Shown here: piece after piece, positions 1-29,289 of the stretch
Position numbering within the stretch: the stretch's first letter is position 1
Layout: each line of letters starts with the position of its first letter
Virus record (IMG/VR): IMGVR_UViG_3300046747_000386
Span: 1-37,678 of that record
Strand: one strand, 5' to 3'
DNA from: a virus
Length of the DNA stretch: 37,678 bases
Position numbers and translations under genes: made by a program
Notes under the pieces: generated by a model
What the model saw: only the letters and a program-made list of their open reading frames with translations
Told to the model about the DNA's origin: nothing
Databases searched by the model: none

Positions 1-127
1 TCGTCGAGGTCCTTGAGCAGCCCGTCCATGTCCTTGCGGATGGTGCGCGTGGCGCCCTGCTGCCCGCTCTCGAACGCGCCCTCGGCCGCGCGCGCCTTCG
101 CTAGCACGTCCTGCGAAAAGCCGCGCT
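1..127. repeat. Terminal direct repeat copy 1 (exact duplicate of 37552..37678); assembly overlap of a circular or circularly permuted genome
   Basis: Read directly: tcgtcgaggtccttgagcag...ctgcgaaaagccgcgct at 1-127 recurs base for base at 37552-37678. Confidence 0.95.
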
Positions 128-4248: not shown

Positions 4249-7200
4249 CTATCTCCTCGCTGCCGTGCGCATGGCCAGCATCAGCTTGCCGGGGTTCTTC
4301 CTCAGCTCGACCGTGCAGTGAATCGGCTGAAACGCCTCGCCCACCGCGCCCGTCTCCGTGAACTGCAGCTGCACCGCGCGCGCCTGCTGCACTGTCGGCT
4401 CCGCAAACAGCGCGTAGCGCTTGCTCGTCGTCGTGTCGTCGACCGCGCTCGCGATGTCCGCCGCCGAGTAGGCCTTGGTGGAGTCGAACGTGCCGCGGTA
4501 GTCGGTCGCCGTCTTCACGGCGAGACCGTGCGCGCCCGCGCGCTTCGCATGCATCAGCACATTCGCGATGACCTGGTCGTCCTGCGCGCCGCCGAAGGTG
4601 ATGAGCCCCGTCAGGATGTCGATCTGCGCGGTTTGCGAGACCGAGTCCGAGTCCATCAGCCAAAGCTCGCCCGCGTCGCCGTAGTAGAGGACTTTCCCGC
4701 TCGCAGGCACCTGCGCGACCGCCGTAATGGACGTCACACCCGTGACGGCCTGGTCCCACTCGGTGAACGCATCGACAGCCCAGTTGTAGACGTAGCAAAA
4801 ACCGTCTGCGCAGAAGAAAACGACCTCCTGCGCCTTACGAAACACTGCTGTGCCGACGATCGGACCGTGCAGCAGCGCGTCGACGTCTGAAAACTCCTTG
4901 ATCGCGCCCTGAAAGAGCACAAAACGGTCCGCCGACACGAACATCACGCCCACCGGCGTCTTCACGACGCTGTTTCGCTGCGTGCACGACGTGTCAGAGA
5001 GCTGCTGCGGCGCCGAATAGTCAGGCGGGTTCAAAAGCGCGTCAGGACCTTCGCCCGCGACCGTCCACAGCCCGTTCGAGCAGAGAAAAAGAGGCGTCTC
5101 GCGCAAGTTCGAGGTCGCGACGCCGCGTCCAGCGTTGCTGGGCACGTCCACGAACAAGTCCGGGCTCATCTCGAAGAACACGCCGATCTCACGCGGCTTG
5201 CTAAACCACCAGCGCAGCGGTCTCTCGGCATCGAGCAGCCACAGGCGGTTCGCGACCACGTCTGCATCGAGGCACGCGTTCGGCATGAACGCCGGCAGAG
5301 GCTGCGTCGCGCTCCCGTCTGTGTAGAGCGCCGGGTGAAACGCATCCACGACAGGCAGCGGAATGGTGTTGAACGTCCACGTGCGGAAGGTCTCGCCGTA
5401 GATGCCCGCCGAGCTGAGCATCGACTGCGCGTAGAGCACGACGCCGTTCGCGTAGGACGCGTAGATCGTGATCGTGAACAGCTCCTGCGTGGCGCCGTTT
5501 CGGTGCGTGATGGGCGCGGACACGATCAGCGTCGGCTGCGTGGGGTTCACGAGTGTGACGGGGTTACTCGGCGCGCTCCGGTGGATCTGCCCTTGTGCGT
5601 CCTTGTAGTGCACGACCGCCGCGAACCGGAACGTGCCGGCCGGGAACACGGGCCCTGAGCCGCCAACCAGCGTCGTGGCGACAATCGTCGGCAGCCGCAT
5701 CGGAGATAGCTCGGTCACCTGGCTGCCGTCCCAGACGGCCGGGAGCGCGCCTGCAATGACCGTCTCGCCGATGCCCGTGGGCGCGAACGAAGGCTGCACG
5801 TTGCCAAGCTCGAGCCACGCGTAGCGCGTCAGAAAGCCGTACGGCGTGAGCCCCTCCTCGATGTTCTCGCCGAGGTAGGTGACGAGCACGCGCGAGCCGT
5901 GCGCGATGACGCTGTTGCTCGAGCTGATGAACATGGCGTTCACGGCGCTCGACGGGCCCGGGTAGCGCACCACGATGTCGGTGCCGAGTCGCGCGATCGG
6001 GTAGAACAGAAGCCTGAGCGGGCCCGTCTCTTTCGCGCCGACGTGGAGGCGCAGCACCTCGATGCTCGGGTCGAACACGAACGCGCTTGAGAGTGGATTG
6101 TAGGTGTTGACGTTGCTGCTCTGGTCGTAACAAATCTGCGTCGTGATGAGCGCGTGGATGTCGGTCGGGCTGTTGGTCTGCGTGGCGATCTGGCCGACCA
6201 AGATCTGAAAAGGGATGTTCTCCGAGTAGACGAGCGCGAGCGTGCCCGGAGCGCGACACTCGACGTACGTCCCGCGAATGCCCGCGGAGAGGCCCGTCAC
6301 AGCGAGCACGCGATAGACCACGCCGGGGTTGGTCGCCTGGAAGGTCTGAAAGCCCACGCCGACAGGACCGTTGATGCCGCTCGCGAAGTTACTGACGGCC
6401 GTAAACACGAGCGCCGGCGTCAGCTCGACCAGCGTCCACGAGCCGACCGACAGACCCAAGATGACTGCGTCGCCTGCACGGTACGCGAGGCCGACGTTCG
6501 TGATCGCAAGCGCACCCACGTACGTGTACGGAGCCGCGATCGCGAGCGTGGCCGTGTCGATGCGCAAGACGACTTGATTGTTCGCGGTCACGTTGTGCTG
6601 ACACGTGAGGTACACGTTCGCGGTGTCGGCCGCGTCGTAGGCGATCTGCGTGCGCGCGTAGCCGTTCGTCGCGACCGGCCCGAAGATTCCCACCCACGCG
6701 CCGAGCGTCAGCTGCAGGCCGCCCGTGAGCGTGAGATGCGCGGCCGAGATGCCGCCACCAGCGCCGCCGAACCCACGCCACAGGATGACCGTGCTCCCGT
6801 GCGCGGAGATGCCGAGGAAGTTGTCTTTGCTGTCTGCCAAGACGCCAAGCCCGAAGGCGTCGCCCACGAACGTCTGTGCGACGACCACGCGCCCCGCGTC
6901 GTCGATGACCGTGACGACGATGGCGCACGAGGTCGATCCACGCGGCACAAGCGCCGCAAACCACGTCTGGCCCGCGCTCTCTACGTAAGCGCAGCAAGAG
7001 TTGTAGTAGCTCCGCTGCACGCCCGGCACCGTGCCTGCGTTCACGACCTGCGCAGGGTAGTAGCTGCTCTTCGGCTGCCCGAAGGCGTAGATGCCGTTCG
7101 AGACGCCCACGTCATCGTCTGCAATGCGCCGCGACGCCGTAACCGGGTCGAGCAGGAGCAGACTCGAGTCGAGCGCGCCCGACGGCACAAGCCCGCCGCA

Positions 7201-13628: not shown

Positions 13629-13696
13629 CAGCAGCTCCCCTTGCCGCGCTTGCCCTTCTTGGGCTTGCGAATCCACTTCGGGTATTGCTTGGCCAT
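13628..13696 (-). CDS. Candidate 22-aa highly basic micro-protein MAKQYPKWIRKPKKGKRGKGSC
   Basis: Hand translation. The ATG shares 1 nt with the terL stop, and its TGA shares 1 nt with the next ATG. Below the ORF-track size cutoff. Confidence 0.35.
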   Translation of the reverse strand: MAKQYPKWIRKPKKGKRGKGSC

Positions 13697-15132
13697 CAGC
13701 CCCACCGTCCCTTCGTGCGCTCCTGCTGCGACATGCGCGCTTTGGCATCGAGTTGGCGACGGACCTCGGCTTCAAGCTTCTCTGCCTCAGCCAAAATACT
13801 GGGCGGCTCCTTGGCTGTCCATGTAATCGTTTCAGTGAGGGCGTATCGCGCCGCGTCGTGCATGTGGTTGGCGTACCCAGGATGGGGCTCCTGCCTGAAC
13901 TCGTCCTTCCACGGCAACGTCTGCCACTCGGCCGCAAGCCCCTGCGCGTCTGGCAAGAGCACCTTGAGCCGCTCACAGCGCAGCTCCGTGTTCAGCCAGC
14001 GCACGCTCTCTACGACGCTGCCCGCGACCTTCTGGGCGCCGCGTACGTTCACGCCAAGCTCAGCCGCGTACCGGCGGCTGAACGTCTCGTAGAACTGCTT
14101 TCCGCCGCCGCCAGGGTCGCACACCACGCTCGACACGCGGTAGCGCCTGACCAGGCGCGTGAGCATCGCCGCCATGTCGTCGTTCGTGAGGCGCGAGGCG
14201 TGCTCGGCCGCGAGGATGTAGCGCCGCTCGGGCTGATGCGGGCTCATGGTCAGCACCACCACCGCGAAGTCGTCCTCGTAGCCCACGTCCACGCCCGCGA
14301 CGTGCGGCCAGTCGAGGCTGTAGCCCTTGGGCAGCTCACGCACGGCGTCGCGGCTGTGCTTGTACTCGACCACCATGCGGTCAGGGTCGTCGACGAACTT
14401 GCCGAGGTACTCACGCTGGAAGGTCGGGTGCTCCCAGGTCCAGTTGTTACGCTCGAGCACGCTCGAGAGCCACGCCTCGCCGCCTCCGTGGGCTGGGCGG
14501 AAGTGTGGGTTTTGGCGCACGTCCCAGTGGTGGTGCGACCACTTCGCGCACTCGTCGCCCTCCGCGATGTCAAACCAGGGCCCGGCGCGCGTCACGCTCG
14601 GCGTGCCGTAGAGCGTCGCCTGGCCGCCTAGGTCGCCCAGGGCCGGCTCGAGCACGCTCTCGATGAGGCGCGGCAAGTGCGTGGCGACAGTGGCGCTCTC
14701 GTCGAGCCTGAACGCACGAATCTTGAAGCCGCGGATCTCCTCGACCTTGGCCGAGTCGTTCAGGCCGAGGAACACGATCGAGCCGCCCTGGGGGTTGGTC
14801 CACGTTAGCGCCTGGCCGTTCGGCGTGAAAGGCAGCTGATGGCGGCGCACCACGGCATGCAAGTTCGCCCAGTGCAGCGCGTGCGCTTTCTTCAGCGTCT
14901 CGGCGGCGATGATGACGACCTCGTTCAAGCCGGCGTCGAGCGCGTCCATGGCCGACGACTTCGGCATGCCGTCCGACTTCCCGCCTCGACGGGCCGCGTG
15001 ACACTCCTTGAACTGCGCCGGGTCGTCGTAGAGCGCGAGCTGCTCGGGGAACATGCTCGCGCGGATGCGGGCCTTGAGCCGCCACTGCGGGCCGAGCACA
15101 TAGTCCGCGTACGCGACGAGCGGGTCGGTCAT
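13696..15132 (-). CDS. terL: Terminase large subunit, 478 aa
   Basis: ORF track. Walker A-like HAARRGGKSDG, Walker B-like IRAFRLDES, and a C-terminal nuclease-type segment AGVDVGYEDDFAVVVL. Directly follows terS. Confidence 0.85.
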   Translation of the reverse strand: MTDPLVAYADYVLGPQWRLKARIRASMFPEQLALYDDPAQFKECHAARRGGKSDGMPKSSAMDALDAGLNEVVIIAAETLKKAHALHWANLHAVVRRHQLPFTPNGQALTWTNPQGGSIVFLGLNDSAKVEEIRGFKIRAFRLDESATVATHLPRLIESVLEPALGDLGGQATLYGTPSVTRAGPWFDIAEGDECAKWSHHHWDVRQNPHFRPAHGGGEAWLSSVLERNNWTWEHPTFQREYLGKFVDDPDRMVVEYKHSRDAVRELPKGYSLDWPHVAGVDVGYEDDFAVVVLTMSPHQPERRYILAAEHASRLTNDDMAAMLTRLVRRYRVSSVVCDPGGGGKQFYETFSRRYAAELGVNVRGAQKVAGSVVESVRWLNTELRCERLKVLLPDAQGLAAEWQTLPWKDEFRQEPHPGYANHMHDAARYALTETITWTAKEPPSILAEAEKLEAEVRRQLDAKARMSQQERTKGRWG

Positions 15133-17871: not shown

Positions 17872-18008
17872 CGGAAAAGCACCAGCAGCAGCAGAATGAG
17901 AATCACGATGCCGAGAGGCCCTGAGAAGAGCAGCGGCACGTGGTGTGGAAACAGGTAGCTGATGAGCACCAGCACGAGCAGCACGACCAGCACATCACGC
18001 AGACTCAT
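17868..18008 (-). CDS. Holin-like two-TMD protein, 46 aa (MSLRDVLVVLLVLVLISYLFPHHVPLLFSGPLGIVILILLLLVLFR)
   Basis: Track ORF 17868..18131 trimmed to the ATG at 18008 (ATGA with the resolvase stop). Immediately upstream of the endolysin. Confidence 0.6.
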   Translation of the reverse strand: MSLRDVLVVLLVLVLISYLFPHHVPLLFSGPLGIVILILLLLVLFR

Positions 18009-18622
18009 GTTCCCCCCATCAGCGGCAACTGCCTGGCCGCTGCTCTCTTCACGCTGCCTTTGAGGCGCACGAGCTTGCGCCCGTGCTCGAGCATCGCCAC
18101 GCCGTCGATCGCGCCCCACGCTGCGATGCACACGGCCTCCGCCTCGTTGTGGTCGGTGAGGTTTTCCCCCACGTGCTGCGAGGCCCAGAGCAGCGCGCGT
18201 GCCTTGAGTGCGTCTGCGCCGATCGACTGGCCTGTGCCGAGCACGCGTGCACGCCAGTCACGCGGCGTCACCTTGAGCCGCAGGGCCTCGGGGTGGCCGA
18301 TGCCGTCCAGCAGCTCGTCCCAGCGCCCTCGCGCAGCGCCCAGGCCAAGAAGCATCGCTGCATTGCGCGTCGGCGCTTGGTCGCTGCCATCTGCGTTCTT
18401 GCGGCCGCCGTAGCTCAGGCTGATGCCGCTGTGGTCCTCGAACACCACGAGCAGATTGGCCGCTTGATGCGCATGCTCGTACACGCGGTCGAGCGCGTAC
18501 AGGCGACCATTGCGGCCCTTCGCGACTCCGTGCTCGAACACGCGTCCGCCGCATGGCGCGATCGCCCAACCTGACGTCGCCGCTTGGTCGATGCCGAGCA
18601 CGTGCGTGGGGGCGTACTTCAC
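18005..18622 (-). CDS. RuvC-like Holliday junction resolvase, 205 aa
   Basis: Track ORF 18005..18844 trimmed to the GTG at 18622. N-terminal VLGIDQAATSGWA (catalytic Asp strand) and C-terminal DHNEAEAVCIAAWG. Confidence 0.65.
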   Translation of the reverse strand: MKYAPTHVLGIDQAATSGWAIAPCGGRVFEHGVAKGRNGRLYALDRVYEHAHQAANLLVVFEDHSGISLSYGGRKNADGSDQAPTRNAAMLLGLGAARGRWDELLDGIGHPEALRLKVTPRDWRARVLGTGQSIGADALKARALLWASQHVGENLTDHNEAEAVCIAAWGAIDGVAMLEHGRKLVRLKGSVKRAAARQLPLMGGT

Positions 18623-18849
18623 GCTGTCCCCCTCTCGCGCATCGAGCGCCGCGTGCTCAGTGGCAGCTGCTCGTCGCAGATCGCGTCGAACACCTCCCGA
18701 GCGTGCTGCACTTCGCGCATGCGCTGCAGGCTCCACGCCGCGAGCACGAGCCCTGCGCCGTCCATGCACGCTGCGCAGAACTGTCCGCGCACGCTGCCGA
18801 CGCGGTAGCTCTGCACAAGCCGTGTGCTCTGACAGACTGCGCATTTCAT
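18619..18849 (-). CDS. Zinc-ribbon mini-protein, 76 aa (CAVC...CAAC)
   Basis: Track ORF 18619..19209 trimmed to the ATG at 18849 (ATGA overlap). MKCAVCQSTRLVQSYRVGSVRGQFCAACMDG. Confidence 0.6.
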   Translation of the reverse strand: MKCAVCQSTRLVQSYRVGSVRGQFCAACMDGAGLVLAAWSLQRMREVQHAREVFDAICDEQLPLSTRRSMRERGTA

Positions 18850-19316
18850 GCGTTCCTCCAGCCTCGCGGGAGCAAGTGCTCGCCGCGTGTTTGCTTCTCG
18901 GCCCAGCCGCGCTCGACGCTCAGCCCGTCGACGGCGTAGTGGTCGTGTGCGAAGCGCTCGAGCTGCTCGAGGCGCTTGTCGAGCGCGACATCGCGCTGGG
19001 CGTCTTCGCGCAACGTCGCCCACATCCACGCGAGCGCCGAGAGCTTGCGCGCGTTCTCTGCCTCGACCCACGTGACGTGCTCGCGGTACTTGCCGAGGCC
19101 GACCGCGGTGTCTTTCTCGCTCGCGATGTTTGCCACGAGCTGGCGCGCTGCAGCGACGTTGCCGTCGCGGCCGTGCTGCCGCGCTTGGTCGATCGCGGCC
19201 TGGAGCCACGAGGGCGGCGCTTCGAAGCGCAGCGGCGTGAACGCGACGAGGTGGTCGAGGCCATCGCGTGCAATCGCGCCGCGGTTTTCGTCGAGCGTGT
19301 CAGCGTCCGAATGCAC
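18846..19316 (-). CDS. Hypothetical protein, 156 aa
   Basis: ORF track; 17-nt overlap with the upstream gene; normal composition. Confidence 0.6.
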   Translation of the reverse strand: MHSDADTLDENRGAIARDGLDHLVAFTPLRFEAPPSWLQAAIDQARQHGRDGNVAAARQLVANIASEKDTAVGLGKYREHVTWVEAENARKLSALAWMWATLREDAQRDVALDKRLEQLERFAHDHYAVDGLSVERGWAEKQTRGEHLLPRGWRNA

Positions 19317-20220
19317 GGCGTGGCTCCCCTCCCCGACTGCCGTCGAGGTCCTTTTCGAGCTGGCGAATCTGGCTCAGAACGCGGGTCATCTCGTCGCCGA
19401 ACTCACCGCGGTCGACGAGCGTTTTGTGCTCTGCACGCAGCGCTGCGAGCTGCTGGTGGGGCGTGCTCTTCGCCACCGTCGGCGCTTCGCGCGGCTCGAA
19501 ATATTTGTGCGCATCGCGAGCCAAATGCGCGATCGGGAAGTGCTGCGAGCGGCACCACGCATCGGCGAAAAACGTGTCGAGCGTTCGGGCGAGGTTTGCC
19601 TCGAGCTCGCCCGACAGCGAGCTCAGCCATGCCGCGAGCGTCGCCACGCCTGGGTCGCTCGAGCGGGTCCACAGGCTCCCCTCGGCCGCCTCGAACCGCC
19701 GGGCGAACTCTTGCCGCACGACCCGCTCGGTCTCTCCCTGCCGGCCAGGCTCGCCCGCCTGCGCGCGCGCGCTCTCTCTCTCACGGATAGGATCGGATAG
19801 GAGAGGAGAGGAGAGGAGAGGAGAGGGAGACGCGCGCGCGGTAACCGGGTCACATGTGATGGGGTCTGACGGTGTTTCGTGACGTCCATTTGTTGTCACG
19901 CGTGACGTTCGCGATTTCCTCTGTCGTTCTGCAGCCTGTTCACGCTGCTCATCCCCCCTGACTATCTGAGGTTGCCACTCTGAGAAGTCATGAAATGCAT
20001 ACCCCTCGGGGGTCTCCAGCCACAGTCCAGCCTCGATCAGCTCCTGTACAGCTCGTTTTGTACGGCCCAAGCGCTTAAAAATGTCTCTCGGAACGCTCCC
20101 GTCTTTGCGATATCGAGCCGTCCACGAGCCCGCTTGGACCCACAAAGCGAGCGCGGCGTCACTTAATTCGGTGACTTTCTCGTGACCCCAGAAGCCATCG
20201 TCGATGCGAAACCAGGTCAT
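19300..20220 (-). CDS. Replication-organiser / initiator-like protein, 306 aa (N-terminal wHTH-type domain, SP-rich linker, C-terminal domain)
   Basis: Track ORF 19300..20388 trimmed to the ATG at 20220 (ATGA with the methyltransferase stop). The N-terminus MTWFRIDDGFWGHEKVTELSDAALALWVQAGSWTARY resembles the N-terminal domain of phage replisome-organiser proteins. This is recalled from memory and was not searched. Confidence 0.55.
   Translation of the reverse strand: MTWFRIDDGFWGHEKVTELSDAALALWVQAGSWTARYRKDGSVPRDIFKRLGRTKRAVQELIEAGLWLETPEGYAFHDFSEWQPQIVRGDEQREQAAERQRKSRTSRVTTNGRHETPSDPITCDPVTARASPSPLLSSPLLSDPIRERESARAQAGEPGRQGETERVVRQEFARRFEAAEGSLWTRSSDPGVATLAAWLSSLSGELEANLARTLDTFFADAWCRSQHFPIAHLARDAHKYFEPREAPTVAKSTPHQQLAALRAEHKTLVDRGEFGDEMTRVLSQIRQLEKDLDGSRGGEPRRAFGR
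19761..19840. repeat. Simple-repeat cluster inside the replication gene: (GC)6, (TC)5, GGATAG-GATC-GGATAG, (GGAGA)5 + GGGAGA, (CG)5
   Basis: Read directly: gcgcgcgcgcgc 19761-19772, tctctctctc 19773-19782, ggataggatcggatag 19785-19800, GGAGA x5 19800-19824, gggaga 19825-19830, cgcgcgcgcg 19831-19840. Confidence 0.9.
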
Positions 20221-20834
20221 GAAACCCACACCTCCTCGACCACGTTCGCGAGCTCGCCGTCCTGGCGCGGCTTCTGCCGGCGCTCGATCGTGAGCACGAC
20301 GCTGTCGAAGCTCGGGGACTGGTCGCCGCCGTAGTCGACGCGGCTTGGGAGACGCGCGCGACGCCGCACGACGCCCTTCCGCGCCCACAGGAGGCGGTCA
20401 CGCGAGCCTCCGTACTCGAAGCTTGTCGGGAACACGCCGACGACCACAGGGGCAATCTCGAGGGCGCGCAGCACAAAGCGCAGGTGCCCCTCGTCCTCGA
20501 AGGGCGGATTCATCACGACGACGTCGAAGGCGTCGACCCAGAGCGGCTGAAACATCGGATCGAAGAAGTCGCCCACGAACACCATCGCCTCGTAGCGAGC
20601 GATGCAGTACTCGGCCCACGCAAGGTCGAGCTCCACACCCGTGATGTTCGCGGGGGCATGTCCTGCGCGCAGAAGAGCCTCGATGAGGTTGCCGCTTCCG
20701 CACGAAGGCTCGAGCACACGCACTCCGCACGGCACCCACGCGGCGATCTTCTTCGCCAGCCACGGCGGCGTGAACCACTGCGACAGCGCAGGCTTGAGCT
20801 CAGGCTCGCCGAAGAGGGCGCGTTGCTCACCCAT
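20217..20834 (-). CDS. Small SAM-dependent N-methyltransferase, 205 aa (NPPF type; orphan N6-adenine DNA MTase most likely)
   Basis: ORF track. QWFTPPWLAKKI (motif X-like), VLEPSCGSGNL (motif I), VVVMNPPFE (motif IV). No restriction partner nearby. Confidence 0.7.
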   Translation of the reverse strand: MGEQRALFGEPELKPALSQWFTPPWLAKKIAAWVPCGVRVLEPSCGSGNLIEALLRAGHAPANITGVELDLAWAEYCIARYEAMVFVGDFFDPMFQPLWVDAFDVVVMNPPFEDEGHLRFVLRALEIAPVVVGVFPTSFEYGGSRDRLLWARKGVVRRRARLPSRVDYGGDQSPSFDSVVLTIERRQKPRQDGELANVVEEVWVS

Positions 20835-21090
20835 GGCTCGCGCTCCTCAGCCGATAGCTCGTGAAGGTGCCGCCGTGGAAGAGCGCGATCGCTTCTCCTC
20901 GCTCACGCAGCACACGCAGCCCGCAGCGCACGTCGCCCGCGTCGACGAGCTCGCCGCGCACACGCTCTCCGCCGTCGCGCAGGAGCGCGACGATGCCGTC
21001 GACGGTCGGCGCGTCACTCGCATCCGGTATCTCCACCATGGTCGTGAGCGCCAGGTGAACGAGCCCCGCGCATTGCGATTCATAGGTCAC
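20827..21090 (-). CDS. Hypothetical protein, 87 aa
   Basis: ORF track; GTGA overlap with the upstream stop. Confidence 0.55.
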   Translation of the reverse strand: MTYESQCAGLVHLALTTMVEIPDASDAPTVDGIVALLRDGGERVRGELVDAGDVRCGLRVLRERGEAIALFHGGTFTSYRLRSASHG

Positions 21091-21311
21091 GGCAGCCCGC
21101 CTCCCGTGCCCTCTGGAGGCGGCACTGTCTTACGCATGCGCATGTCCCCGCGCATGATGTCGGCGGCGCGTGTCATCGCGCCCTCGAGCGTCGAGAACTC
21201 CCACGCCGTCTCGGTGCGCTCGGCCAAGTCCACCATCACGCTGAACGTGCCGTCCTCGCGGTCGCGACAGACGTGCACCGTCGCAATCAGGTCTGCGCGG
21301 CGCAGGCTCAT
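21087..21311 (-). CDS. Hypothetical protein, 74 aa (MSLRRADLIATVHVCRDREDGTF...)
   Basis: Track ORF 21087..21428 trimmed to the ATG at 21311 (ATGA overlap). Confidence 0.5.
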   Translation of the reverse strand: MSLRRADLIATVHVCRDREDGTFSVMVDLAERTETAWEFSTLEGAMTRAADIMRGDMRMRKTVPPPEGTGGGLP

Positions 21312-21457
21312 GAGGCCCATCCGAGCGCGACCAGCACCTGGCCCATGCCGTAGACGACGAGCCAGACGACGGCCGCGGCCACGGCGACAGAGACCAGCGC
21401 GAGGAGCGCGAGGACGAGCCACTGGCACGCCGTGAGCCCGCGCAGGTCGTCGCTCAT
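21308..21457 (-). CDS. Candidate 49-aa membrane protein MSDDLRGLTACQWLVLALLALVSVAVAAAVVWLVVYGMGQVLVALGWAS
   Basis: Hand translation; ATGA overlaps at both ends; below the track cutoff. Confidence 0.45.
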   Translation of the reverse strand: MSDDLRGLTACQWLVLALLALVSVAVAAAVVWLVVYGMGQVLVALGWAS

Positions 21458-21600
21458 GGCGCTGTCCTGCGCATGCGCCGGAAGCTCTCGAGGTCGCGCA
21501 TGCGCCTCTCAGCGGCGCGGCGTTCGAGGACGGTCTCGAGCCACCAGGCGCCGAGCACAGGCGCGCAGCAGGCTGCGGTGAAGGCGAGGAGGGCGGTCAC
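21454..21600 (-). CDS. Candidate 48-aa membrane protein (VTALLAFTAACCAPVLGAWWLETVLERRAAERRMRDLESFRRMRRTAP)
   Basis: C-terminal part of track ORF 21454..21804, trimmed to the GTG at 21600 (GTGA with the Cro-like stop). Confidence 0.4.
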   Translation of the reverse strand: MTALLAFTAACCAPVLGAWWLETVLERRAAERRMRDLESFRRMRRTAP

Positions 21601-21836
21601 GACGCGCGCCGCCACTTGCTCGGCCGGCCGATGGCGACGCCCTTGATATCGCCGACCTTCACCTCGCCATGGGTGAAACTGCACAGAACGCGCGCCACCT
21701 CGAGCGAGACGAGGCGCTTCTGCGCGCCGTGCACCGTGCTGTAGGCGAGCCCCGACTTGAGCTCGATCTCGCGCATGGTTCCGCGCGGTTGCTTGCGGAC
21801 CCAACGCCCGAACGCGGTTAGACCTTCCTCGTCCAT
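21597..21836 (-). CDS. Cro-like HTH regulator, 79 aa; first gene of the leftward block
   Basis: ORF track. HTH-like TMREIELKSGLAYSTVHGA. Divergent from the CI-like gene across an AT-richer spacer. Confidence 0.65.
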   Translation of the reverse strand: MDEEGLTAFGRWVRKQPRGTMREIELKSGLAYSTVHGAQKRLVSLEVARVLCSFTHGEVKVGDIKGVAIGRPSKWRRAS

Positions 21837-21962
21837 ATAGGAACCGACTATAGTAGACGCTGGATTAAGGCAAGCAAGAATCTATTGCGAACAGCCTCAG
21901 TGTAGGATAGTCCCTATATTGCTATGCTATACGCGCATGCTTCAGTGTTGCTGCCACAAAGC
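21837..21962. promoter_or_regulatory. Divergent immunity control region with TYCCTATA boxes and sigma70-like elements
   Basis: TATAGGAA 21836-21843 (inverted TTCCTATA), palindrome ACTATAGT 21847-21854, TCCCTATATT 21911-20. Leftward TTGCTT (plus 21872-77), 16-nt spacer, TACTAT (plus 21850-55). Rightward -10-like TATATT 21915-20 with a poor -35. Local GC is clearly lower than the genome. Confidence 0.55.
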
Positions 21963-22541
21963 ATGGCAACGAATGAGGAAATCCCGGACATCCGCGTCAT
22001 CAAGGCCATGGTTGACGCCCGTCTGCTTGAGCTGAAAATGAGCAAGGTCGCGCTCGCAAAAAAGCTCGGCTACTCCGGCTACGGCGGCTACTACGACCTG
22101 TTCAGCGCCAAGCGCACGGCGATGACGCACGAGAGGCTCGGCGACATCGCGGAGGCGCTCAACTGGGGAAGGACACGCTTCACCGACCCAGAGGGAGCCA
22201 TCAAGCGCGAGGAGTTCGTGCGCCTCGAGTTCCAGAAGTACCTCGAGACCGACGTGGCGAAGGCGCGCGACCCGGAGACCAACAAGATCCTCGGCTCGAT
22301 GCAGTGGCTCGGAAAGTACCTGCCGACTGTCGACCTCTACCAGGTGGTCGCGCTCGCGATGGAGGGGAAGTACAAGGCCGAAGAGCTGCAGGAGGCCGCC
22401 GAGCTCGCGCGACGCGACCATGCAGCGGAGGAGGCGCTCCACGTCGAGCTCGCCAAGACCGAGCCTGCGTGCGAGAAGCGCCGCCAGGCAGTGGCGCCTG
22501 ACAAGCCCGCAAGCAAGCCGGCACTCAGACGCAAGAAATAG
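21963..22541 (+). CDS. CI-like XRE-family HTH repressor, 192 aa (alternative start 21924)
   Basis: ORF track 21924..22541. HTH MSKVALAKKLGYSGYGGYYDLF. Divergent from the Cro-like gene. No S24 peptidase motif seen. Confidence 0.65.
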   Translation: MATNEEIPDIRVIKAMVDARLLELKMSKVALAKKLGYSGYGGYYDLFSAKRTAMTHERLGDIAEALNWGRTRFTDPEGAIKREEFVRLEFQKYLETDVAKARDPETNKILGSMQWLGKYLPTVDLYQVVALAMEGKYKAEELQEAAELARRDHAAEEALHVELAKTEPACEKRRQAVAPDKPASKPALRRKK

Positions 22542-22611: not shown

Positions 22612-22902
22612 ATGCGGGGGACACTGGCGCGAAACCTGGCGCGCGACGCCGGATACTTAGTCGTTCCGGTGACGGAACACGGCGTATTGCGCGTGCGCGA
22701 TGGCGTACTGGAGGTGGGCCCCGACGCGTCCATCCACGCGATCGCCACGCTCGCCTGCTATCGCCAGTGCGAGCTACACGGCGCGCACTCCGCGCAAGAC
22801 GTGCGCGAGCTCGTCGAGTACTTCGGCTTCCGCTACGAGCCCACACGTGCGCATCTCAAGCGCGCCGGCAAGAGCGGCGTCGCGTACCGCGCGGTCTCTT
22901 AG
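22612..22902 (+). CDS. Hypothetical protein, 96 aa (moron candidate)
   Basis: Track ORF 22420..22902 trimmed to the ATG at 22612. The upstream part overlaps the repressor gene out of frame. Confidence 0.5.
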   Translation: MRGTLARNLARDAGYLVVPVTEHGVLRVRDGVLEVGPDASIHAIATLACYRQCELHGAHSAQDVRELVEYFGFRYEPTRAHLKRAGKSGVAYRAVS

Positions 22903-23363
22903 TACCGGACGATGTCGTGCGAGTCGAAATTGTCGTCGTCGTCGAAGCAGCCGAACTCCAGCTTGCCCGTGCCGCTGCCGTCGCCATCGCCGACCTTCAC
23001 GCGCGCGAACACCTGCGCGCCTGAGGCTGTGACGAGCGTCAGTCTGTCGCCTTGGACGATGACCTTTGCAGACCCCGTCTGGTCGGCGTCCTCGCACGAG
23101 CCGCTGCCCCACGTCCACGCGACACGTTCGCCCTCGACTGCGAAGGTGCCTGTGTAGATCTCCACGCCGATGCTGCCGTCGTCGAAGTCGCACGCCTCTT
23201 TCCACTCCATCGCGTCGCCCTCGAAGTTGAGAATCATCGCACACTCGTATTCGCCCGACTCGCTCACCCAGTTTCCTTGAACCTCATCCGCAAGCCCGCC
23301 ACCGCCGTCGCCTCCACACCCGATAACCAGCGACAAGCACGCAGTTTTCAATAGCTGACGCAT
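22899..23363 (-). CDS. Lipoprotein, 154 aa (MRQLLKTACLSLVIGC lipobox); independently promoted moron
   Basis: Track ORF 22899..23864 trimmed to the ATG at 23363. Signal peptide plus L-V-I-G-C, with GGGGGAGG SD 6 nt upstream. Confidence 0.7.
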   Translation of the reverse strand: MRQLLKTACLSLVIGCGGDGGGGLADEVQGNWVSESGEYECAMILNFEGDAMEWKEACDFDDGSIGVEIYTGTFAVEGERVAWTWGSGSCEDADQTGSAKVIVQGDRLTLVTASGAQVFARVKVGDGDGSGTGKLEFGCFDDDDNFDSHDIVRY

Positions 23364-23438: not shown

Positions 23439-23468
23439 TTGACGATTCCTATAGTTCATTCCTATAGT
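23439..23468 (+). promoter_or_regulatory. Early rightward promoter TTGACG-N18-TATAGT overlapped by two direct ATTCCTATAGT boxes
   Basis: TTGACG 23439-44 and TATAGT 23463-68. attcctatagt occurs at 23446-56 and again at 23458-68. The first ATG of the operon is at 23475. Confidence 0.55.
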
Positions 23469-23474
23469 CGTCGT

Positions 23475-23882
23475 ATGCCTGCTCCTACCCACGCAGCCCA
23501 GCTCGACAAGCTCGCCAACTACATCGCCGCCGACATGATGCGCAGCGCGCAGGCCGCGGCGCTTGCCGCCATCGACCAGCAGTTCGCACTCGCGGCCCTG
23601 ATCGGCTTCGCGAGCCGCCTCAAAGCGCGCCGCGTGACCCGCCTCGAGGCCGAGCGCGTCCGCTGGCGTGAGGACGGCGCGCATGTCGAGCTGGTCGACG
23701 GCGCGGTGCTGGTCGTCACGGTGCACGAGCGCGACAAGCAGCGCCCGCCGACCGTCGAGCTCGAGCACCTGCACCGCCTGGGCGAGGTCGTGAAGACGGG
23801 CGCGGTCGCCGAGGCCTGGCTCGAGGCGCACGAGCGCGAGCTGGTCGACAGCTGGGCCGAGCATTGCCGGAGCGAGCGATGA
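23475..23882 (+). CDS. Hypothetical early protein, 135 aa
   Basis: Track ORF 23439..23882 trimmed to the ATG at 23475, because 23439-68 reads as a promoter. Confidence 0.55.
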   Translation: MPAPTHAAQLDKLANYIAADMMRSAQAAALAAIDQQFALAALIGFASRLKARRVTRLEAERVRWREDGAHVELVDGAVLVVTVHERDKQRPPTVELEHLHRLGEVVKTGAVAEAWLEAHERELVDSWAEHCRSER

Positions 23883-24094: not shown

Positions 24095-24264
24095 ACAGCG
24101 AGCTTCCTTGTCAGCTCTGCGGCGTACTCACGCTCGAAGACTTTCTCGAGGAAGTGGGCGGGCGCCTGGTGTGTCCGGGCTGCGTGGAGAAGCTCGATGA
24201 GGAAGAGCGCGAGGAAGAGCGCGCGGACGAGTTCGACTGCAAGCAAACGGAGTATTGGCGATGA
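24091..24264 (+). CDS. Zinc-ribbon mini-protein, 57 aa (CQLC-N17-CPGC, acidic tail)
   Basis: Hand translation from the GTG at 24091 (GTGA overlap) to the TGA at 24262-64 (ATGA overlap with the nuclease gene). Below the track cutoff. Confidence 0.5.
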   Translation: MNSELPCQLCGVLTLEDFLEEVGGRLVCPGCVEKLDEEEREEERADEFDCKQTEYWR

Positions 24265-25223
24265 AGACGCACCTTCGCGTGGTCACGAACAGCGAGCGCA
24301 CCACTTTCCGCCGGTGTCAGCGTGAGCATCGCTACGCCTACGGCCTTGGCTACCGCGCGATCGAGGACGCGGAGGCGCTCCGCTTCGGCAAGCTCTGGCA
24401 CGTGGGCCTTGAAGCGTGGCACCTCGGCCTTGGTGTCGAAGCCGCCATCAGCGCGGCCACGGCGGGCGCTGTCGACGAGTACGAGGCGGCGCGCCTCCGC
24501 GTGCTCCTGCGTGGCTATGACGCGCGCTGGCGTACGCCTGAGCCGGACGTGCGCGGCGTCGAAGTCGAGTTCCGCGCACCGCTCGTGAACCCCGAGACTG
24601 GCGCACCATCGCGCACCTTCGAACACGGCGGGAAGATCGACGTGCTCCTGGCGCACGGCTTCATGGAGCACAAGACCACGAGCGAGGACATCGGCCTCGG
24701 CTCGGTGTACTGGCGTCGGCTGACGCTCGACCCCCAGGTCTCGACCTACTACGCGGGCGCGCGCGCCCTGGGCGTCGAGCCCGAGCGGTGCATCTATGAC
24801 GTCGTGCGTAAGCCCGCCCTGCGCCCACTTCGAGCCACGCCCGAAGAGAACAGGAAGTACACGAAGGACGGCCGCCTCTACGCCAACCAGCGCGCTGAGG
24901 ACGAGACCGCGGCGGAGTACGAGCTCCGGCTCGCGGAGGACATCTGCGAAAGTCCCGATCGCTACTATCAGCGCGGAGAAATCGTGCGCCTCGAGGCCGA
25001 CGAGCGCGAAGCGCAGCAGGACGCGTGGCAGCTGACGCGCGTGATGCGCGAGGGCGAGCTCGCGGAGCGCTGGCCGAGAAACCCCGACAGCTGTCAACGC
25101 TTCGGGCGCGTGTGCGCCTACTTCGACGTGTGTTGCGGCACCGCGTCCCTGGACGACCCGGCGCAGTTCACGAAGGTCGACAACGTGCACCAAGAGCTAT
25201 CCGCGGAACAAGCCGCGGAGTGA
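24261..25223 (+). CDS. PD-(D/E)XK exonuclease, Cas4/RecB-like with 4-Cys cluster, 320 aa
   Basis: ORF track 24255..25223. GKIDVLLAHGFMEHKTT (D...E-x-K), N-terminal Cys in FRRCQREH, and C-terminal CQRFGRVCAYFDVCC. Confidence 0.7.
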   Translation: MKTHLRVVTNSERTTFRRCQREHRYAYGLGYRAIEDAEALRFGKLWHVGLEAWHLGLGVEAAISAATAGAVDEYEAARLRVLLRGYDARWRTPEPDVRGVEVEFRAPLVNPETGAPSRTFEHGGKIDVLLAHGFMEHKTTSEDIGLGSVYWRRLTLDPQVSTYYAGARALGVEPERCIYDVVRKPALRPLRATPEENRKYTKDGRLYANQRAEDETAAEYELRLAEDICESPDRYYQRGEIVRLEADEREAQQDAWQLTRVMREGELAERWPRNPDSCQRFGRVCAYFDVCCGTASLDDPAQFTKVDNVHQELSAEQAAE

Positions 25224-25255: not shown

Positions 25256-26206
25256 ATGCAACCAGTAGTAAAGCAAGCACAGCAGTCTCAACCCAACAGG
25301 CTCTTACGCGTCGTGCGCGGAAAGCTCACCGCACCTCTGCGGCTCGTCCTCTACTCCACCGACGGCCTCGGCAAGTCGACCTTCGCGTCGAACGCGCCGG
25401 CGCCGATCTTCATCGGCGCCGAAGACGGTACAGCGCAGCTCGACGTCGCGCGCATGCCGGACGTCGCAACGTGGGACGACATCCTCGAGTCGGTCGAGGA
25501 GCTCGCCACCACCGAGCACGGCTTTCAGACGCTCGTGCTCGACACGGCCGATTGGGCAGAGCCCTTGTGCTGGGCGCACGTCGCCAAGGCCGCCAAGAAA
25601 GAGAACATCGAGGACCTGGCGTACGGCAAGGGCTACGCGGCCGCGCTCGACCAGTGGCGCGTGCTCTTGTCGAAGATGGAGCGCGCCCGCGCCCGCGGCA
25701 TGCACATCATCATCCTGGCGCACAGCATCATCCGCACGTTTAAGAATCCCGTGCAGGAAGTCGGGGATTTTGACCGCTGGGAGATGAAGCTCCACACGAA
25801 AGCGTCGGGCCTTCTGCGCGAGTGGGCGGACGTCGTGCTGTTCGGCAGCTACGAGACCTTCACGGTCACCGACGACAAGAAGCGCACGCGCGGCATCAGC
25901 ACCGGCGCGCGCCTCGTGCACACCGAGCGCACGGCGGCGTACGACGCGAAGAACCGGCACGCGCTGCCGCCGACGCTGCCCCTCGACTGGGAAGCGTTCG
26001 CAGGCGCTGTCGCCGCCCACCAGCCCGCCAGCCCCGCGAAGCTCCGCGAGCGCATCGCCGCGCTCCTCGAGAACGCGCCCGAAGAACTGCGTGTACGCGT
26101 GAACGCAGCAGTGGCGAAAGCGGGCGACGACGCGGCACTACTCGCCCGCATCGAGAACAAGCTCTCAGCAGAAGCCAACATCCAAGCGCAGGAGACAGCG
26201 AAATGA
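25256..26206 (+). CDS. AAA_24 / Sak4-like RecA-family recombination ATPase, 316 aa
   Basis: Track ORF 25025..26206 trimmed to the ATG at 25256 (GGTGG SD). Walker A LVLYSTDGLGKST, Walker B-like TLVLDTADW. Confidence 0.7.
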   Translation: MQPVVKQAQQSQPNRLLRVVRGKLTAPLRLVLYSTDGLGKSTFASNAPAPIFIGAEDGTAQLDVARMPDVATWDDILESVEELATTEHGFQTLVLDTADWAEPLCWAHVAKAAKKENIEDLAYGKGYAAALDQWRVLLSKMERARARGMHIIILAHSIIRTFKNPVQEVGDFDRWEMKLHTKASGLLREWADVVLFGSYETFTVTDDKKRTRGISTGARLVHTERTAAYDAKNRHALPPTLPLDWEAFAGAVAAHQPASPAKLRERIAALLENAPEELRVRVNAAVAKAGDDAALLARIENKLSAEANIQAQETAK

Positions 26207-28071: not shown

Positions 28072-29289
28072 GTGGGCATCTACAATCGCGCCCCGCTTGG
28101 CAGCCCGCCCAACTGGTGGATCTCCTACACGCTGCCGAAAGAGCTCGCCAAGCGCTTCTCGGTGAAGCGCCTGCAGCGCGATCCCGCGGGCAGCGACCGG
28201 CGCGAAGCCGAGCGTCTGCACTCGCGTCGCCGCAAGCAGGCCAAAGACGGCACGTGGCGCCCCTCGAGCAAAGCGTCGGCAAGCTCGACGCTGGAGGCCT
28301 ACGGGGAGCGCTGGATCGCGGGGCGAGAGAAGAGCGGCGTCCGAGGCGTGCGCGACGAGGCCCAGCGGCTCCGCGACTTCGTCTACCCCGTGCTCGGCAA
28401 TAGGCCGATGGAGGACGTGTCCCAGTCGCGCGCGGACATCAAGGCGCTCGTGAGCGGCCTTGGTGATGTGGTCTCGGAGCGCACGAAGCGGCCGCTGGCC
28501 CCTCGCACGCAGCGGCACGTCTACAACACGCTGCGCGCCATGTTCGCGGACGCGGTGGCTGACGGGGTCGTGCTCGTGAACCCGTGCACCCTGCGCGCGA
28601 AGCGTGGCGAGCTGCCGAAGAAGAAAGACGCAAACCCGCGCTGGCGCTCGGGCGCGGTGTTCACGCGCGAAGAGATCGAGGGCCTCATCAGCGATCTGCG
28701 CATCCCCGAGCTCCGGCGCGTCCTGTACGCGCTCACGTTCTTGGGCGGCATGCGCATCGGCGAAGCCGTCGCGCGTCAGTGGCGTGACTACGACCCGGTT
28801 TGCGAGCCGCTCGGCCGGCTGGTGATCGCCACGCAGCACGACGAAGACGAGCTCAAGACCGAGCAGCCCCGCGAGATGCCCGTGCACCCCACCCTCGCCC
28901 GCGTCCTGGCCGAATGGAAGCTGCGCTACCCGGTGGTGTGCGCGCAGACGCCCTCGCCCGATGCGCACATAGTTCCGAACCGCGCCAAGACGCGCGCTGC
29001 GCACCTTCCGATCTGCGGCAAGTTCGCGTGGAGGAACCTTCAGAGCGACCTGACGACGCTCGGCCTCCGGCGAAGGCGCGTGCACGACATTCGCCGCACG
29101 TTCATCTCGCTGGCGCTGGCGGACGGGGCCGACAAGTACCTGCTCAAGTTCACCACGCATGGGCGCCCGAAAGAGGACGCCTTCGACGACTACGCCACCC
29201 CGCCGTGGGAGACGCTCTGCGCGCAGGTGGCCAAGCTCAAGATTCGGGTTCGGCGGGGCACTGTGACCTCGCTAAGGAGAGAGGCGTGA
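28072..29289 (+). CDS. int: Tyrosine integrase, 405 aa
   Basis: ORF track; GTG start. LTFLGGMRIGEAVARQWRDYD (catalytic Arg box), VHDIRRTFISLA (H-x-x-R), and a C-terminal HG...Y region. Confidence 0.85.
   Translation: MGIYNRAPLGSPPNWWISYTLPKELAKRFSVKRLQRDPAGSDRREAERLHSRRRKQAKDGTWRPSSKASASSTLEAYGERWIAGREKSGVRGVRDEAQRLRDFVYPVLGNRPMEDVSQSRADIKALVSGLGDVVSERTKRPLAPRTQRHVYNTLRAMFADAVADGVVLVNPCTLRAKRGELPKKKDANPRWRSGAVFTREEIEGLISDLRIPELRRVLYALTFLGGMRIGEAVARQWRDYDPVCEPLGRLVIATQHDEDELKTEQPREMPVHPTLARVLAEWKLRYPVVCAQTPSPDAHIVPNRAKTRAAHLPICGKFAWRNLQSDLTTLGLRRRRVHDIRRTFISLALADGADKYLLKFTTHGRPKEDAFDDYATPPWETLCAQVAKLKIRVRRGTVTSLRREA

Follow-up and report, generated by a model that had tools for sequence, protein, structure and literature searches.

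Positions 19,750-19,910 of the viral IMG/VR record IMGVR_UViG_3300046747_000386, analysed over its full length of 37,678 nucleotides (nt; hereafter the window), are best interpreted as the cis-acting replication origin of a phage, a reading to which we assign a probability of about 0.6. The candidate origin is located inside the replication initiator gene, in the part that encodes a predicted disordered linker between two folded domains, and combines a cluster of GTCAC/GTGAC half-sites with a strand-asymmetric tract of 5-nt units (Table 1). Comparison of related initiators lends good support to a lambda-like origin within the initiator gene. An origin in this location is a known design; half-site arrays and a pentamer tract in this initiator family are, as far as the literature searched shows, undescribed.

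The initiator gene and its protein

The identity of the gene is established by profile matches. Three PHROG families annotated as "replication initiation protein" match the N-terminal part of the 306-amino acid (aa) product, namely PHROG 2447 (aa 1-115, E-value 2e-35), PHROG 3926 (aa 1-126, E-value 6.9e-23) and PHROG 9474 (aa 1-109, E-value 5.9e-12), in full agreement with the first-pass annotation of this DNA, which had called the gene a replication organiser or initiator from the sequence alone. The PHROG matches are confined to the N-terminal domain; the C-terminal domain yields zero Pfam or PHROG matches, and searches of Pfam and NCBIfam with the whole protein, and of Pfam with each domain, detect no family even at E-values up to 10. 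Full-length homologues are 52-56% identical to the initiator, and a tblastn search started with the N-terminal domain identifies about 600 cultured actinophage records, some of them annotated as "RepA-like replication initiator".

The AlphaFold2 model of the initiator (mean predicted local distance difference test score, pLDDT, 75.5) contains two folded domains plus a disordered linker, and at the level of the model this architecture can be considered established. A Foldseek search against the PDB gives nothing significant (best E-value 1.5), with many winged-helix domains among the weak matches. Assignment to the iteron-plasmid Rep proteins (WH1-WH2, Pfam Rep_3) was considered and rejected, given that there is no profile match and that the model has a single winged-helix-like domain and a helical C-terminal domain. 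The latter is presumed to be a replisome-recruitment module.

Repeat elements in the linker DNA

Positions in the gene are converted to those in the window as 20221 minus the gene nucleotide. Direct reading of 19500-20600, together with a script, finds every feature that had been listed in the first-pass annotation. The linker DNA holds all the repeats except palindrome A, which is located just upstream, at aa 105-109; the palindromes (nt 315-372) and the tract (nt 391-436) occupy the inter-domain part of the gene, which is where ori-lambda is found in gene O.

Table 1. Features of the candidate origin, the initiator and the surrounding phage genome (window coordinates)
Feature	Position	Strand	Remarks
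Large terminase	13696-15132	-	Profile match
RuvC-like resolvase	18005-18844	-	Profile match; downstream of the initiator gene
156-aa open reading frame (ORF)	18846-19316	-	Directly downstream of the initiator; position of the helicase loader in cultured relatives
Replication initiator gene	19300-20220	-	306 aa; ORF list, PHROG matches
C-terminal all-helical domain, aa 159-306	19300-19746	-	Modelled; pLDDT >90 for most of aa 160-297
Disordered linker, aa 111-156	19753-19890	-	Modelled; pLDDT <50
Right arm of inverted repeat, (GC)6(TC)5	19761-19782		Coding strand GTG(AG)4...(CG)n
(GC)6	19761-19772		Read on the plus strand
(TC)5	19773-19782		Read on the plus strand
Pentamer tract, 9 units	19785-19830		Gene nt 391-436; coding strand TCTCCC, (TCTCC)5, TATCC, GATCC, TATCC
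GGATAGGATCGGATAG	19785-19800		Read on the plus strand
All-purine run, 32 nt	19799-19830
(GGAGA)5	19800-19824		Perfect units; GGGAGA next at 19825-19830
Left arm of inverted repeat (coding-strand view)	19831-19848		(CG)5 at 19831-19840 plus GTAACCGG spacer
Palindrome B	19849-19860		Gene nt 361-372; GTCACATGTGAT, core TCACATGTGA at 19850-19859; read I-T-C-D
Single half-site GTGAC	19879-19883		Gene nt 338-342; coding strand CGTCACGAAA
GACGTC	19881-19886
Palindrome A, GTCACGCGTGAC	19895-19906		Gene nt 315-326; read S-R-V-T; candidate initiator-dimer site
N-terminal domain, aa 1-110	19891-20220	-	AlphaFold2: winged-helix-like aa 10-82, long basic helix aa 84-109
DNA methyltransferase gene	20217-20834	-	Pfam MetW/Methyltransf, PHROG 799 "DNA methyltransferase"; upstream of the initiator, translationally coupled
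Divergent pair of small helix-turn-helix (HTH)-like genes	21597-21836 and 21924-22541	- and +	ORF translations
Exonuclease	24255-25223		Profile match
Sak4-like annealing protein	25313-26206		Profile match
Integrase	28072-29289		Profile match

Palindromes A and B are separated by 46 bp, centre to centre, and the sites are about 23 bp, or two helical turns, apart, so that both palindromes and the intervening half-site are expected to lie on one face of the helix. With four GTCAC/GTGAC half-sites per 70 nt, the locus has the highest density of this motif in the window. A scan with the 15-mer GGAGAGGAGAGGAGA, allowing up to 2 mismatches, gives 4 matches, all at the locus, against 0.13 expected, and in a scan with GTCACNNGTGAC palindrome B is recovered as a one-mismatch match. 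GACGTC, which the first-pass annotation had listed as a separate element, is indeed present, but the conserved unit at this position is the overlapping GTGAC.

The tract is pyrimidine-rich on the coding strand, spans 46 bp with a GC content of 0.565 and has an in-phase CC in all 9 of its units; Tandem Repeats Finder detects an array of period 5 that spans 19785-19826, and the purine run on the opposite strand is the sole purine/pyrimidine run of at least 15 nt in the window. The low duplex stability of the tract is established: by nearest-neighbour calculation, the 40 bp from 19785 rank 9th among the least stable segments of the genome, in a list headed by three intergenic segments, where DNA coding for the N-domain takes the 4th place (19961) and the 10th (20074). 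The GC content of the tract is 56%, compared to 67% for the genome, whereas homologous tracts in most relatives reach about 80%. A G-quadruplex is not predicted in the window tract, which has GG runs only and for which ViennaRNA with G-quadruplex folding gives none.

The (GC)n(TC)n and (GA)n(CG)n arms, described earlier as an imperfect inverted repeat, fold as a hairpin with a free energy of -25.5 kcal/mol (z-scores of -2.6 and -1.8, depending on the strand), and the left arm belongs to the inverted repeats I10, I17 and I18. Runs of (CG)n with at least 5 units are present at both arms; yet the GC-rich window contains 29 (CG)n runs of at least 4 units.

Half-site arrays in close relatives

The DNA of twelve relatives, denoted here by L-numbers, was compared with the window, and the linkers were read codon by codon. 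Close relatives display the same linker architecture at the same gene positions. Palindrome A is perfect or near-perfect at nt 315-326 in the window, L003, L005, L203 and L204, with one mismatch in L205, and together with its flanks reads (T)GTCACGCGTGAC(A) across the relatives; in L148, it is replaced by GTCCGATCGGAC. The half-site at gene nt 337-340 is kept in seven relatives and is absent from L150. At the position of palindrome B, L203 and L204 contain GTCACGCGTGAC, read as V-T-R-D, and L005 contains GTCACATGTGAC, so that one and the same 12-mer, GTCACGCGTGAC, occurs within the gene in two frames, S-R-V-T at nt 315 and V-T-R-D at nt 361. Palindrome B is followed by a CCGGTT spacer, with or without (CG)n, and the pentamer tracts of the close relatives comprise 8-11 units of NNNCC.

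The most informative case is L148, whose N-domain is 77% identical to that of the window. Here GTCCG/CGGAC is found at nt 315, 322, 338 and 368, the exact positions of GTCAC/GTGAC in the window, with an extra copy at nt 348. An internal control is provided by the GTCAC words at nt 35 and 46 of the same gene, which are set by the conserved G-H and K-V-T codons and are unchanged in L148. The whole 5' cluster of GTCAC/GTGAC (nt 35, 46 and 59, the last in an S-D context; approximately 20158-20186) was accordingly rejected as a group of binding sites, being dictated by codons. L001, which has a different N-domain, contains GTAGAC/GTCTAC four times, including a 16-bp palindrome. The use of two frames, the concerted change in L148 and the dependence of the sites on the type of N-domain indicate that the half-sites act as DNA rather than as codons. 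It is thus established that the half-sites are conserved in place, do not depend on the reading frame and change in concert; judged by the comparison of relatives, the GTCAC palindromes have the character of sites bound by a protein and not of repeats that encode a peptide.

Two further relatives combine a C-domain of the window type with unrelated N-domains. In L207, ten GTCAC/GTGAC half-sites are present at nt 344-446, mostly about 10 nt apart; in L206, ACGCGT occurs three times at 11-nt spacing both at nt 198-220 and at nt 379-401. The arrays that lie in the linker region are each followed by a 5-nt-periodic tract of their own, of the TTTGC type in L207 and (GGGAA)n in L206.

Half-sites and the pentamer tract across the initiator family

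The survey was extended to about 200 N-domain loci from viral contigs, genomes and metagenomes, with the genes located by tblastn. The 130 nt preceding the tract were examined in 95 genes after dereplication. Four or more copies of a 6-mer are present in 43% of these genes, whereas among 3823 control windows the proportion is 2.5%. For the top 5-mer, four or more copies are present in 77 of the 95 genes, and among these 77 it is found in both orientations in 72, in at least two frames in 70 and in all three frames in 34. The repeated word is clade-specific: GTCAC, GTTCGC, GGGAC, GGTGAC, GTAAC and others.

For the tract, the score was the number of units, among nine consecutive 5-nt units, that contain CC in the same phase, and windows from the same loci, on both strands, served as controls (n=6003). 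A score of at least 7 is reached by 62 of 192 linkers (32%) and by 8 of the control windows (0.13%); the respective counts for a score of at least 5 are 148 (77%) and 430 (7%). In all 12 close relatives examined, including L206 and L207 with their unrelated N-domains, the best window of lag-5 autocorrelation falls within the linker. Thus, (GGAGA)5 is evidently the local form of a family-wide 5-nt-periodic C-run tract, which the first-pass annotation had not remarked on. The unit is CCCGA, CCCGT or CCCAT in actinophages, where it encodes PDPTR-like peptides, and TCTCC, TATCC or GATCC in the clade of the window. At least three distinct units with the C-run phase kept are found in 43 of 51 strong tracts; imperfect units in a constant phase indicate that the tract is maintained rather than produced by fresh slippage.

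The strand bias of the tract is equally clear. A canonical G-quadruplex motif (at least 4 G-runs of at least 3, with loops of 1-7 nt) was sought in 175 genes; 131 of them have it on the template strand and 2 on the coding strand, with 0.018 motifs per 300 nt in controls. In viral contigs, exact (CCCGA)5 has an N-domain directly upstream on the same strand at 47 of 85 dereplicated sites; the remaining sites include a related initiator fused to HNH and a primase/helicase junction. Accordingly, both the family-wide presence of the tract and its strand bias are established.

A simpler account of these data is that the element is only a low-complexity, Pro/Ser-rich flexible linker, with repeats that arise from slippage and palindromes that are incidental. 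The region does encode a linker that is disordered in the model, unit numbers vary among relatives, (CCCGA)n is found also at inter-domain and inter-gene junctions of other proteins, some members of the family lack the tract, and synonymous-site conservation is not raised at the palindromes. Selection on codons or peptides, however, leaves the 5-nt period unexplained: the C-run stays in phase even though the tracts encode peptides as different as SPLLS, PDPTR, PIPSH and PSQPV. Moreover, the diversity of units in strong tracts is not that of fresh microsatellites, the half-sites occur in both orientations and several frames and change in concert, the bias of the G-run motif is 131:2, and the tract is strongly tied to the initiator family. 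We therefore consider a mere linker improbable.

Several other occurrences of the tract are of interest in their own right. In L281 (approximately 5550-5700, reverse strand), (CCCGA)6 lies exactly between the ORF of a prim-pol primase (553 aa) and an ORF with a helicase domain (Walker A), which is in another frame and has an ATG right after the tract; a PHROG profile joins both parts in a single protein, and the junction is either a natural split or a frameshift caused by tract length. L210 and L292 encode a related initiator with an HNH nuclease domain (PHROG 15463; the N-terminus matches PHROG 2447 with an E-value of 4.7e-8), in which the tract is reversed: its G-rich strand is the coding one, and the peptide GSGRVGSGR results close to the C-terminus. 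In L243, L248, L266 and L287, (CCCGA)5 occurs two or three times per contig, at intervals of about 1 kb, with no link to the N-domain family; one of these tracts is just upstream of a conserved PHROG 2554 gene. A hairpin after the tract was considered as a third conserved element and dropped, the enrichment being modest (stems of at least 7 bp in 9.5%, compared to 2.6% of controls).

Tract length and the frameshift hypothesis

The first-pass annotation had suggested that (GGAGA)5 could be an on/off switch, i.e., a contingency locus where slippage by one unit would turn the full-length initiator on or off. The repeat is perfect, with five copies inside an ORF, and its unit is not a multiple of 3. 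In L203 and L003, the tract consists of TCTCCC, one TCTCC and then similar units, and the window carries four extra TCTCC units (20 nt). Furthermore, an alternative frame is open through the tract and ends at 19623, and the (CCCGA)6 of L281 separates primase and helicase ORFs in different frames. Unit number does vary among related genomes, but the variation is always compensated: the frame is restored by other 5-nt differences, e.g., an extra TTACC in L003. None of the 47 complete homologues with strong tracts is truncated after the tract, the reading frame of each continuing for 239 nt or more past this point, and the tracts are identical in independent assemblies (L001 = L002 = L006; L003 = L004). 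Most tracts are imperfect and hence poorly slippery, and there is no obvious benefit for a phage in switching off an essential replication gene. Taken together, these observations make a switch very unlikely, and this part of the first-pass annotation finds no support in the homologues and assemblies compared.

Domain shuffling at the linker

The N-domain of the window is 75-86% identical to those of L003, L203, L204, L205 and L148, whose C-terminal parts are unrelated. For the C-domain, the relatives are L001, L206 and L207, with 59-76% identity and N-domains of other types. This mosaic pattern indicates that each domain recombines without the other and that the linker is where they are joined. 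Among the mosaic initiators (the window, L001, L003, L203-L207 and L148), one type of N-domain is paired with at least four types of C-domain, and one type of C-domain with four types of N-domain. Thus, specificity (the N-domain with its sites) and host coupling (the C-domain) appear to be swapped as modules at a joint that coincides with the DNA element. A plausible reading of the low GC content of the N-domain DNA is that N-domain and sites travel together from phage to phage, with the C-domain remaining tied to the lineage of the host.

One flank of the tract recurs in initiators with a common C-domain. GTG(AG)n(CG)n is found after the tract in the window and in L001, which differ in the number of AG units (four versus five) and in the frame (RERESARA versus VRERARAP); L207 has a degenerate AGAGCGAGAGA(CG)n at this position. 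On the side of the left arm, CCGGTTAC(CG)n is present also in L003 and L005. The (CG)n arms themselves, described in the first-pass annotation as being of the Z-DNA type, qualify as such by sequence but are limited to the closest relatives, L001, L003 and L005, and to one side in L203, and are absent from more distant relatives.

These findings raise the question of whether the linker DNA is chiefly a recombination joint that serves to swap N-domain-plus-sites and C-terminal host-interaction modules. Fusion of the window N-domain to at least three unrelated C-domains, and of its C-domain to three other N-domain types, fits such a role, as does the GTG(AG)n(CG)n element shared, in a degenerate form in L207, by three initiators with a common C-domain. 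A joint leaves the half-site arrays, their helical spacing and their concerted change unexplained, and it is compatible with an origin, of which it would more likely be a consequence. As the primary function of the element, it seems unlikely.

Origin or operator

In the proposed mechanism, dimers of the N-domain would bind the two GTCAC-N2-GTGAC palindromes (19895-19906 and 19849-19860) and the half-site at 19879-19883, and the adjacent 46-bp strand-asymmetric tract (19785-19830) would either open as a duplex or have one of its strands engaged. The flanking inverted repeat of (CG)5-6 and (TC/GA)n might aid opening by hairpin extrusion under negative supercoiling, in the lineage of the window only. 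The C-terminal domain would then bring in the host helicase, and transcription of the early operon through the site may assist. Initiator binding, unwinding, helicase recruitment and origin activity are what we infer from the arrangement of the sites and its conservation. More tentatively, the pentamer tract could be a hitherto undescribed, obligatory cis-acting origin element of the replicons of phages with high-GC hosts, one that replaces the AT-rich unwinding element or the DnaA-trios; we regard this generalisation as possible but doubtful. The initiator, or a loader recruited by it, might engage one strand in a 5-nt register, or a G-quadruplex or i-motif might hold the origin open. In that case, the PDPTRPDPTRP and SPLLSSPLLS peptides would be mere translations of a DNA element.

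Several observations weigh against an origin at this locus. In the literature searched, origin activity has no experimental support in any initiator of the family. The tract is not universal, e.g., Cjw1 gp80 has none (and Blett gp42 only four units); it is found also outside the family, e.g., at the primase/helicase junction in L281; and in most actinophage relatives it is about 80% GC, so that it is no simple AT-rich melting element there. Synonymous-site conservation among seven close relatives is not peaked at the palindromes compared to the rest of the N-domain, being uniformly 0.45-0.79. Across the whole genome, the GTCACNNGTGAC motif is not enriched when one mismatch is allowed (3 matches against 1.8 expected); the significance of the palindromes comes from their clustering and their conservation in relatives. 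Cumulative GC skew, which the first-pass annotation had put forward as a guide to the origin, has no turning point at the element (19.8 kb); it is uninformative for this small phage, where skew follows gene orientation. Finally, binding sites within the gene could serve autoregulation instead of initiation.

The last point can be stated in a stronger form, whereby the half-sites are an operator or roadblock with which the initiator would throttle its own operon, at the level of transcription or of translation, while replication starts at some other locus. The comparative evidence for binding sites fits this explanation equally, the sites are within the transcribed early operon, and the template-strand G-quadruplex motif of most relatives could impede RNA polymerase. 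The rest of the window, however, contains no second cluster of half-sites or iteron-like repeats, and in known systems iterons next to a special tract inside an initiator gene are origins. On balance, an operator in place of an origin is rather unlikely.

Base composition bears on the same question. The GC content is 0.564 for 19861-20220 and 0.70 for 20221-20280, which reproduces the hand counts of the first-pass annotation (about 56% and 70%). The value for the 360-nt segment is in the lowest 0.5% of windows, and there are three such regions in all. The other two were considered as rival origins and rejected: neither contains repeat arrays, the one at 21.6-22.2 kb being the divergent switch (promoter) region and the one at 23.1-23.5 kb a lipoprotein gene with a short direct repeat. 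The DNA coding for the N-domain (gene nt 1-300, 19921-20220) has a GC content of 0.567, compared to 0.673 for the locus, and 0.60 at third codon positions (GC3), and low GC and GC3 of this region are observed also in L001, L003 and L005. Thus, the suggestion that the N-domain region is an easily melted tract has some merit in this phage, where two of its segments are among the 12 least stable, but does not generalise: across 154 homologous loci, the GC content of the N-domain is just 2.3 points below that of the locus.

If the element is an origin, base-level predictions of origins would become available for a very large initiator family, which spans about 600 cultured actinobacteriophage records plus many prophages and metagenomic phages of Actinomycetota and Myxococcota, and such origins could seed shuttle vectors for high-GC bacteria that are hard to engineer. 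A periodic, strand-specific C-run/G-run tract beside binding sites would further suggest that high-GC replicons may open their origins in ways unlike the AT-rich textbook elements.

Comparison with known systems

The closest parallel in layout is phage lambda, where a 39-bp AT-rich tract is adjacent to the iterons (PMC6022878). When this tract carries in-frame deletions, the origin is inactivated and the protein is not (PMC6022878). The iterons of Stx phages number six, their O protein is longer by 13 residues, and it binds single-stranded AT-rich DNA (PMC7466680). In the annotated lambda genome, the O protein has 299 aa, and four inverted-repeat iterons map to nt 349-433 of gene O. In both systems, the origin, actual or candidate, is in the middle of the gene for an initiator of about 300 aa, flanked by the coding regions for a DNA-binding N-terminus and a C-terminus that serves, or in the window is presumed to serve, in recruitment; next to the inverted-repeat sites there is a tract of some 40 bp with strand asymmetry; relatives differ in repeat number and, as a result, in the length of the protein; and the initiator is a few genes downstream of the immunity switch, which in the window is predicted from ORF translations. 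The differences concern the sites, two 12-bp palindromes plus a half-site in the window as opposed to four 18-bp iterons in lambda, and the tract, which is 5-nt periodic, pyrimidine-rich on the coding strand and 56% GC in the window (about 80% in actinophages) but AT-rich in lambda. The likeness to ori in gene O noted in the first-pass annotation is one of layout and does not indicate common descent: an hhalign comparison with O (using the homologue alignment A2) gives a probability of 0.2 and an E-value of 0.35, and there is no Pfam match. The candidate origin would thus represent the same design as ori-lambda in a different protein family.

Similar arrangements are known beyond lambda. In oriL within gene 38 of SPP1 and in the rep genes of lactococcal and streptococcal phages of the P335 and TP901-1 types, initiator-binding repeats and an easily opened tract are located inside the initiator gene. 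These initiators belong to other protein families and have AT-rich unwinding regions; we know of no 5-nt-periodic C-run tract in such origins. The DnaA-trios of bacterial oriC and the 13-mers of iteron plasmids that bind single-stranded DNA are short, strand-specific periodic motifs beside double-strand initiator sites, and the tract resembles them in the arrangement that is expected if an initiator oligomer engages one strand. In the window, the period is 5 nt rather than 3, and the repeated motif consists of C-runs, which read as G-runs in the template strand. The initiator has no AAA+ domain; binding of single-stranded DNA would be a candidate role, by analogy.

The initiators of actinophages (e.g., Blett gp42 and gp115 of Gordonia phage Yvonnetastic) have a homologous N-domain, with 35-49% identity over about 105 aa, and the same succession of a half-site cluster and a C-run pentamer tract in the linker; Microbacterium phage Blett uses GTCACG half-sites. 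Their C-terminal domain is unrelated to that of the window, and their units, CCCGA or CCCGT, contain CCC runs, in contrast to the CC runs of TCTCC and TATCC in the window, which lacks the canonical G-quadruplex motif. Gene order differs as well. Blett gp42-43-44 encode the initiator, a helicase loader and a DnaB-like helicase, an order shared by L203 and, by analogy, by Cjw1 gp80-81-82, where gp81 has no functional annotation. In the window, the initiator is followed downstream by the 156-aa ORF and the RuvC-like resolvase, with no helicase match among the ORFs scanned.

Wetzel et al. 2020 describe mycobacteriophage RepA proteins with a differently placed HTH (PMC7157519). They found no repeats around repA and only speculated on an origin within the gene (PMC7157519). 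The literature searched contains no published origin mapping for the PHROG 2447/3926/9474 family and no description of the 5-nt-periodic C-run linker tract or the clade-specific half-site arrays.

Phage genome and gene neighbourhood

An exact direct repeat of 127 nt at the two extremities of the window (1-127 and 37552-37678) implies that the genome is complete at 37,551 bp, having been assembled as a circle or being terminally redundant. The genome has a GC content of 67% and is that of a temperate phage. The best named full-length homologue of the initiator is from a Polyangiales genome bin, which makes Myxococcota the probable phylum of the host. The scan for gene families covered the larger ORFs, and in these there are zero matches to a helicase, primase or polymerase. 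Scans of the whole window for tRNAs and Rfam families detect nothing, and a promoter/terminator scan of 19000-22100 gives nothing above chance. Family searches with the 156-aa ORF that follows the initiator gene likewise gave no match.

The ATG of the initiator, at 20220, overlaps the stop codon of the methyltransferase gene as ATGA. The same gene order is found in L001, where the enzyme is of the Dam family, and in L203 the methyltransferase is also upstream of the initiator, with three genes intervening. The pentamer tract contains a GATC at 19791-19794; this word is present also in the tracts of four relatives, and L148 has three copies. Genome-wide, GATC is not enriched (132 observed, 152 expected). 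Control of the origin by methylation, in the style of P1 oriR, is conceivable.

The initiator gene is about 1.6 kb downstream of the divergent HTH-like pair, within the early leftward operon; judging by the ORF translations, the pair is likely to be a cro/cI-like immunity switch. A 154-aa ORF between early genes (22899-23363, minus strand) encodes a lipoprotein-type signal, MRQLLKTACLSLVIGC..., and coincides with an island of low GC content where GC skew is strong; a role in lysogenic conversion or exclusion is possible. Close by, at 23449-23472, TTCCTATAGT occurs twice in tandem, preceding a gene at 23475-23882.

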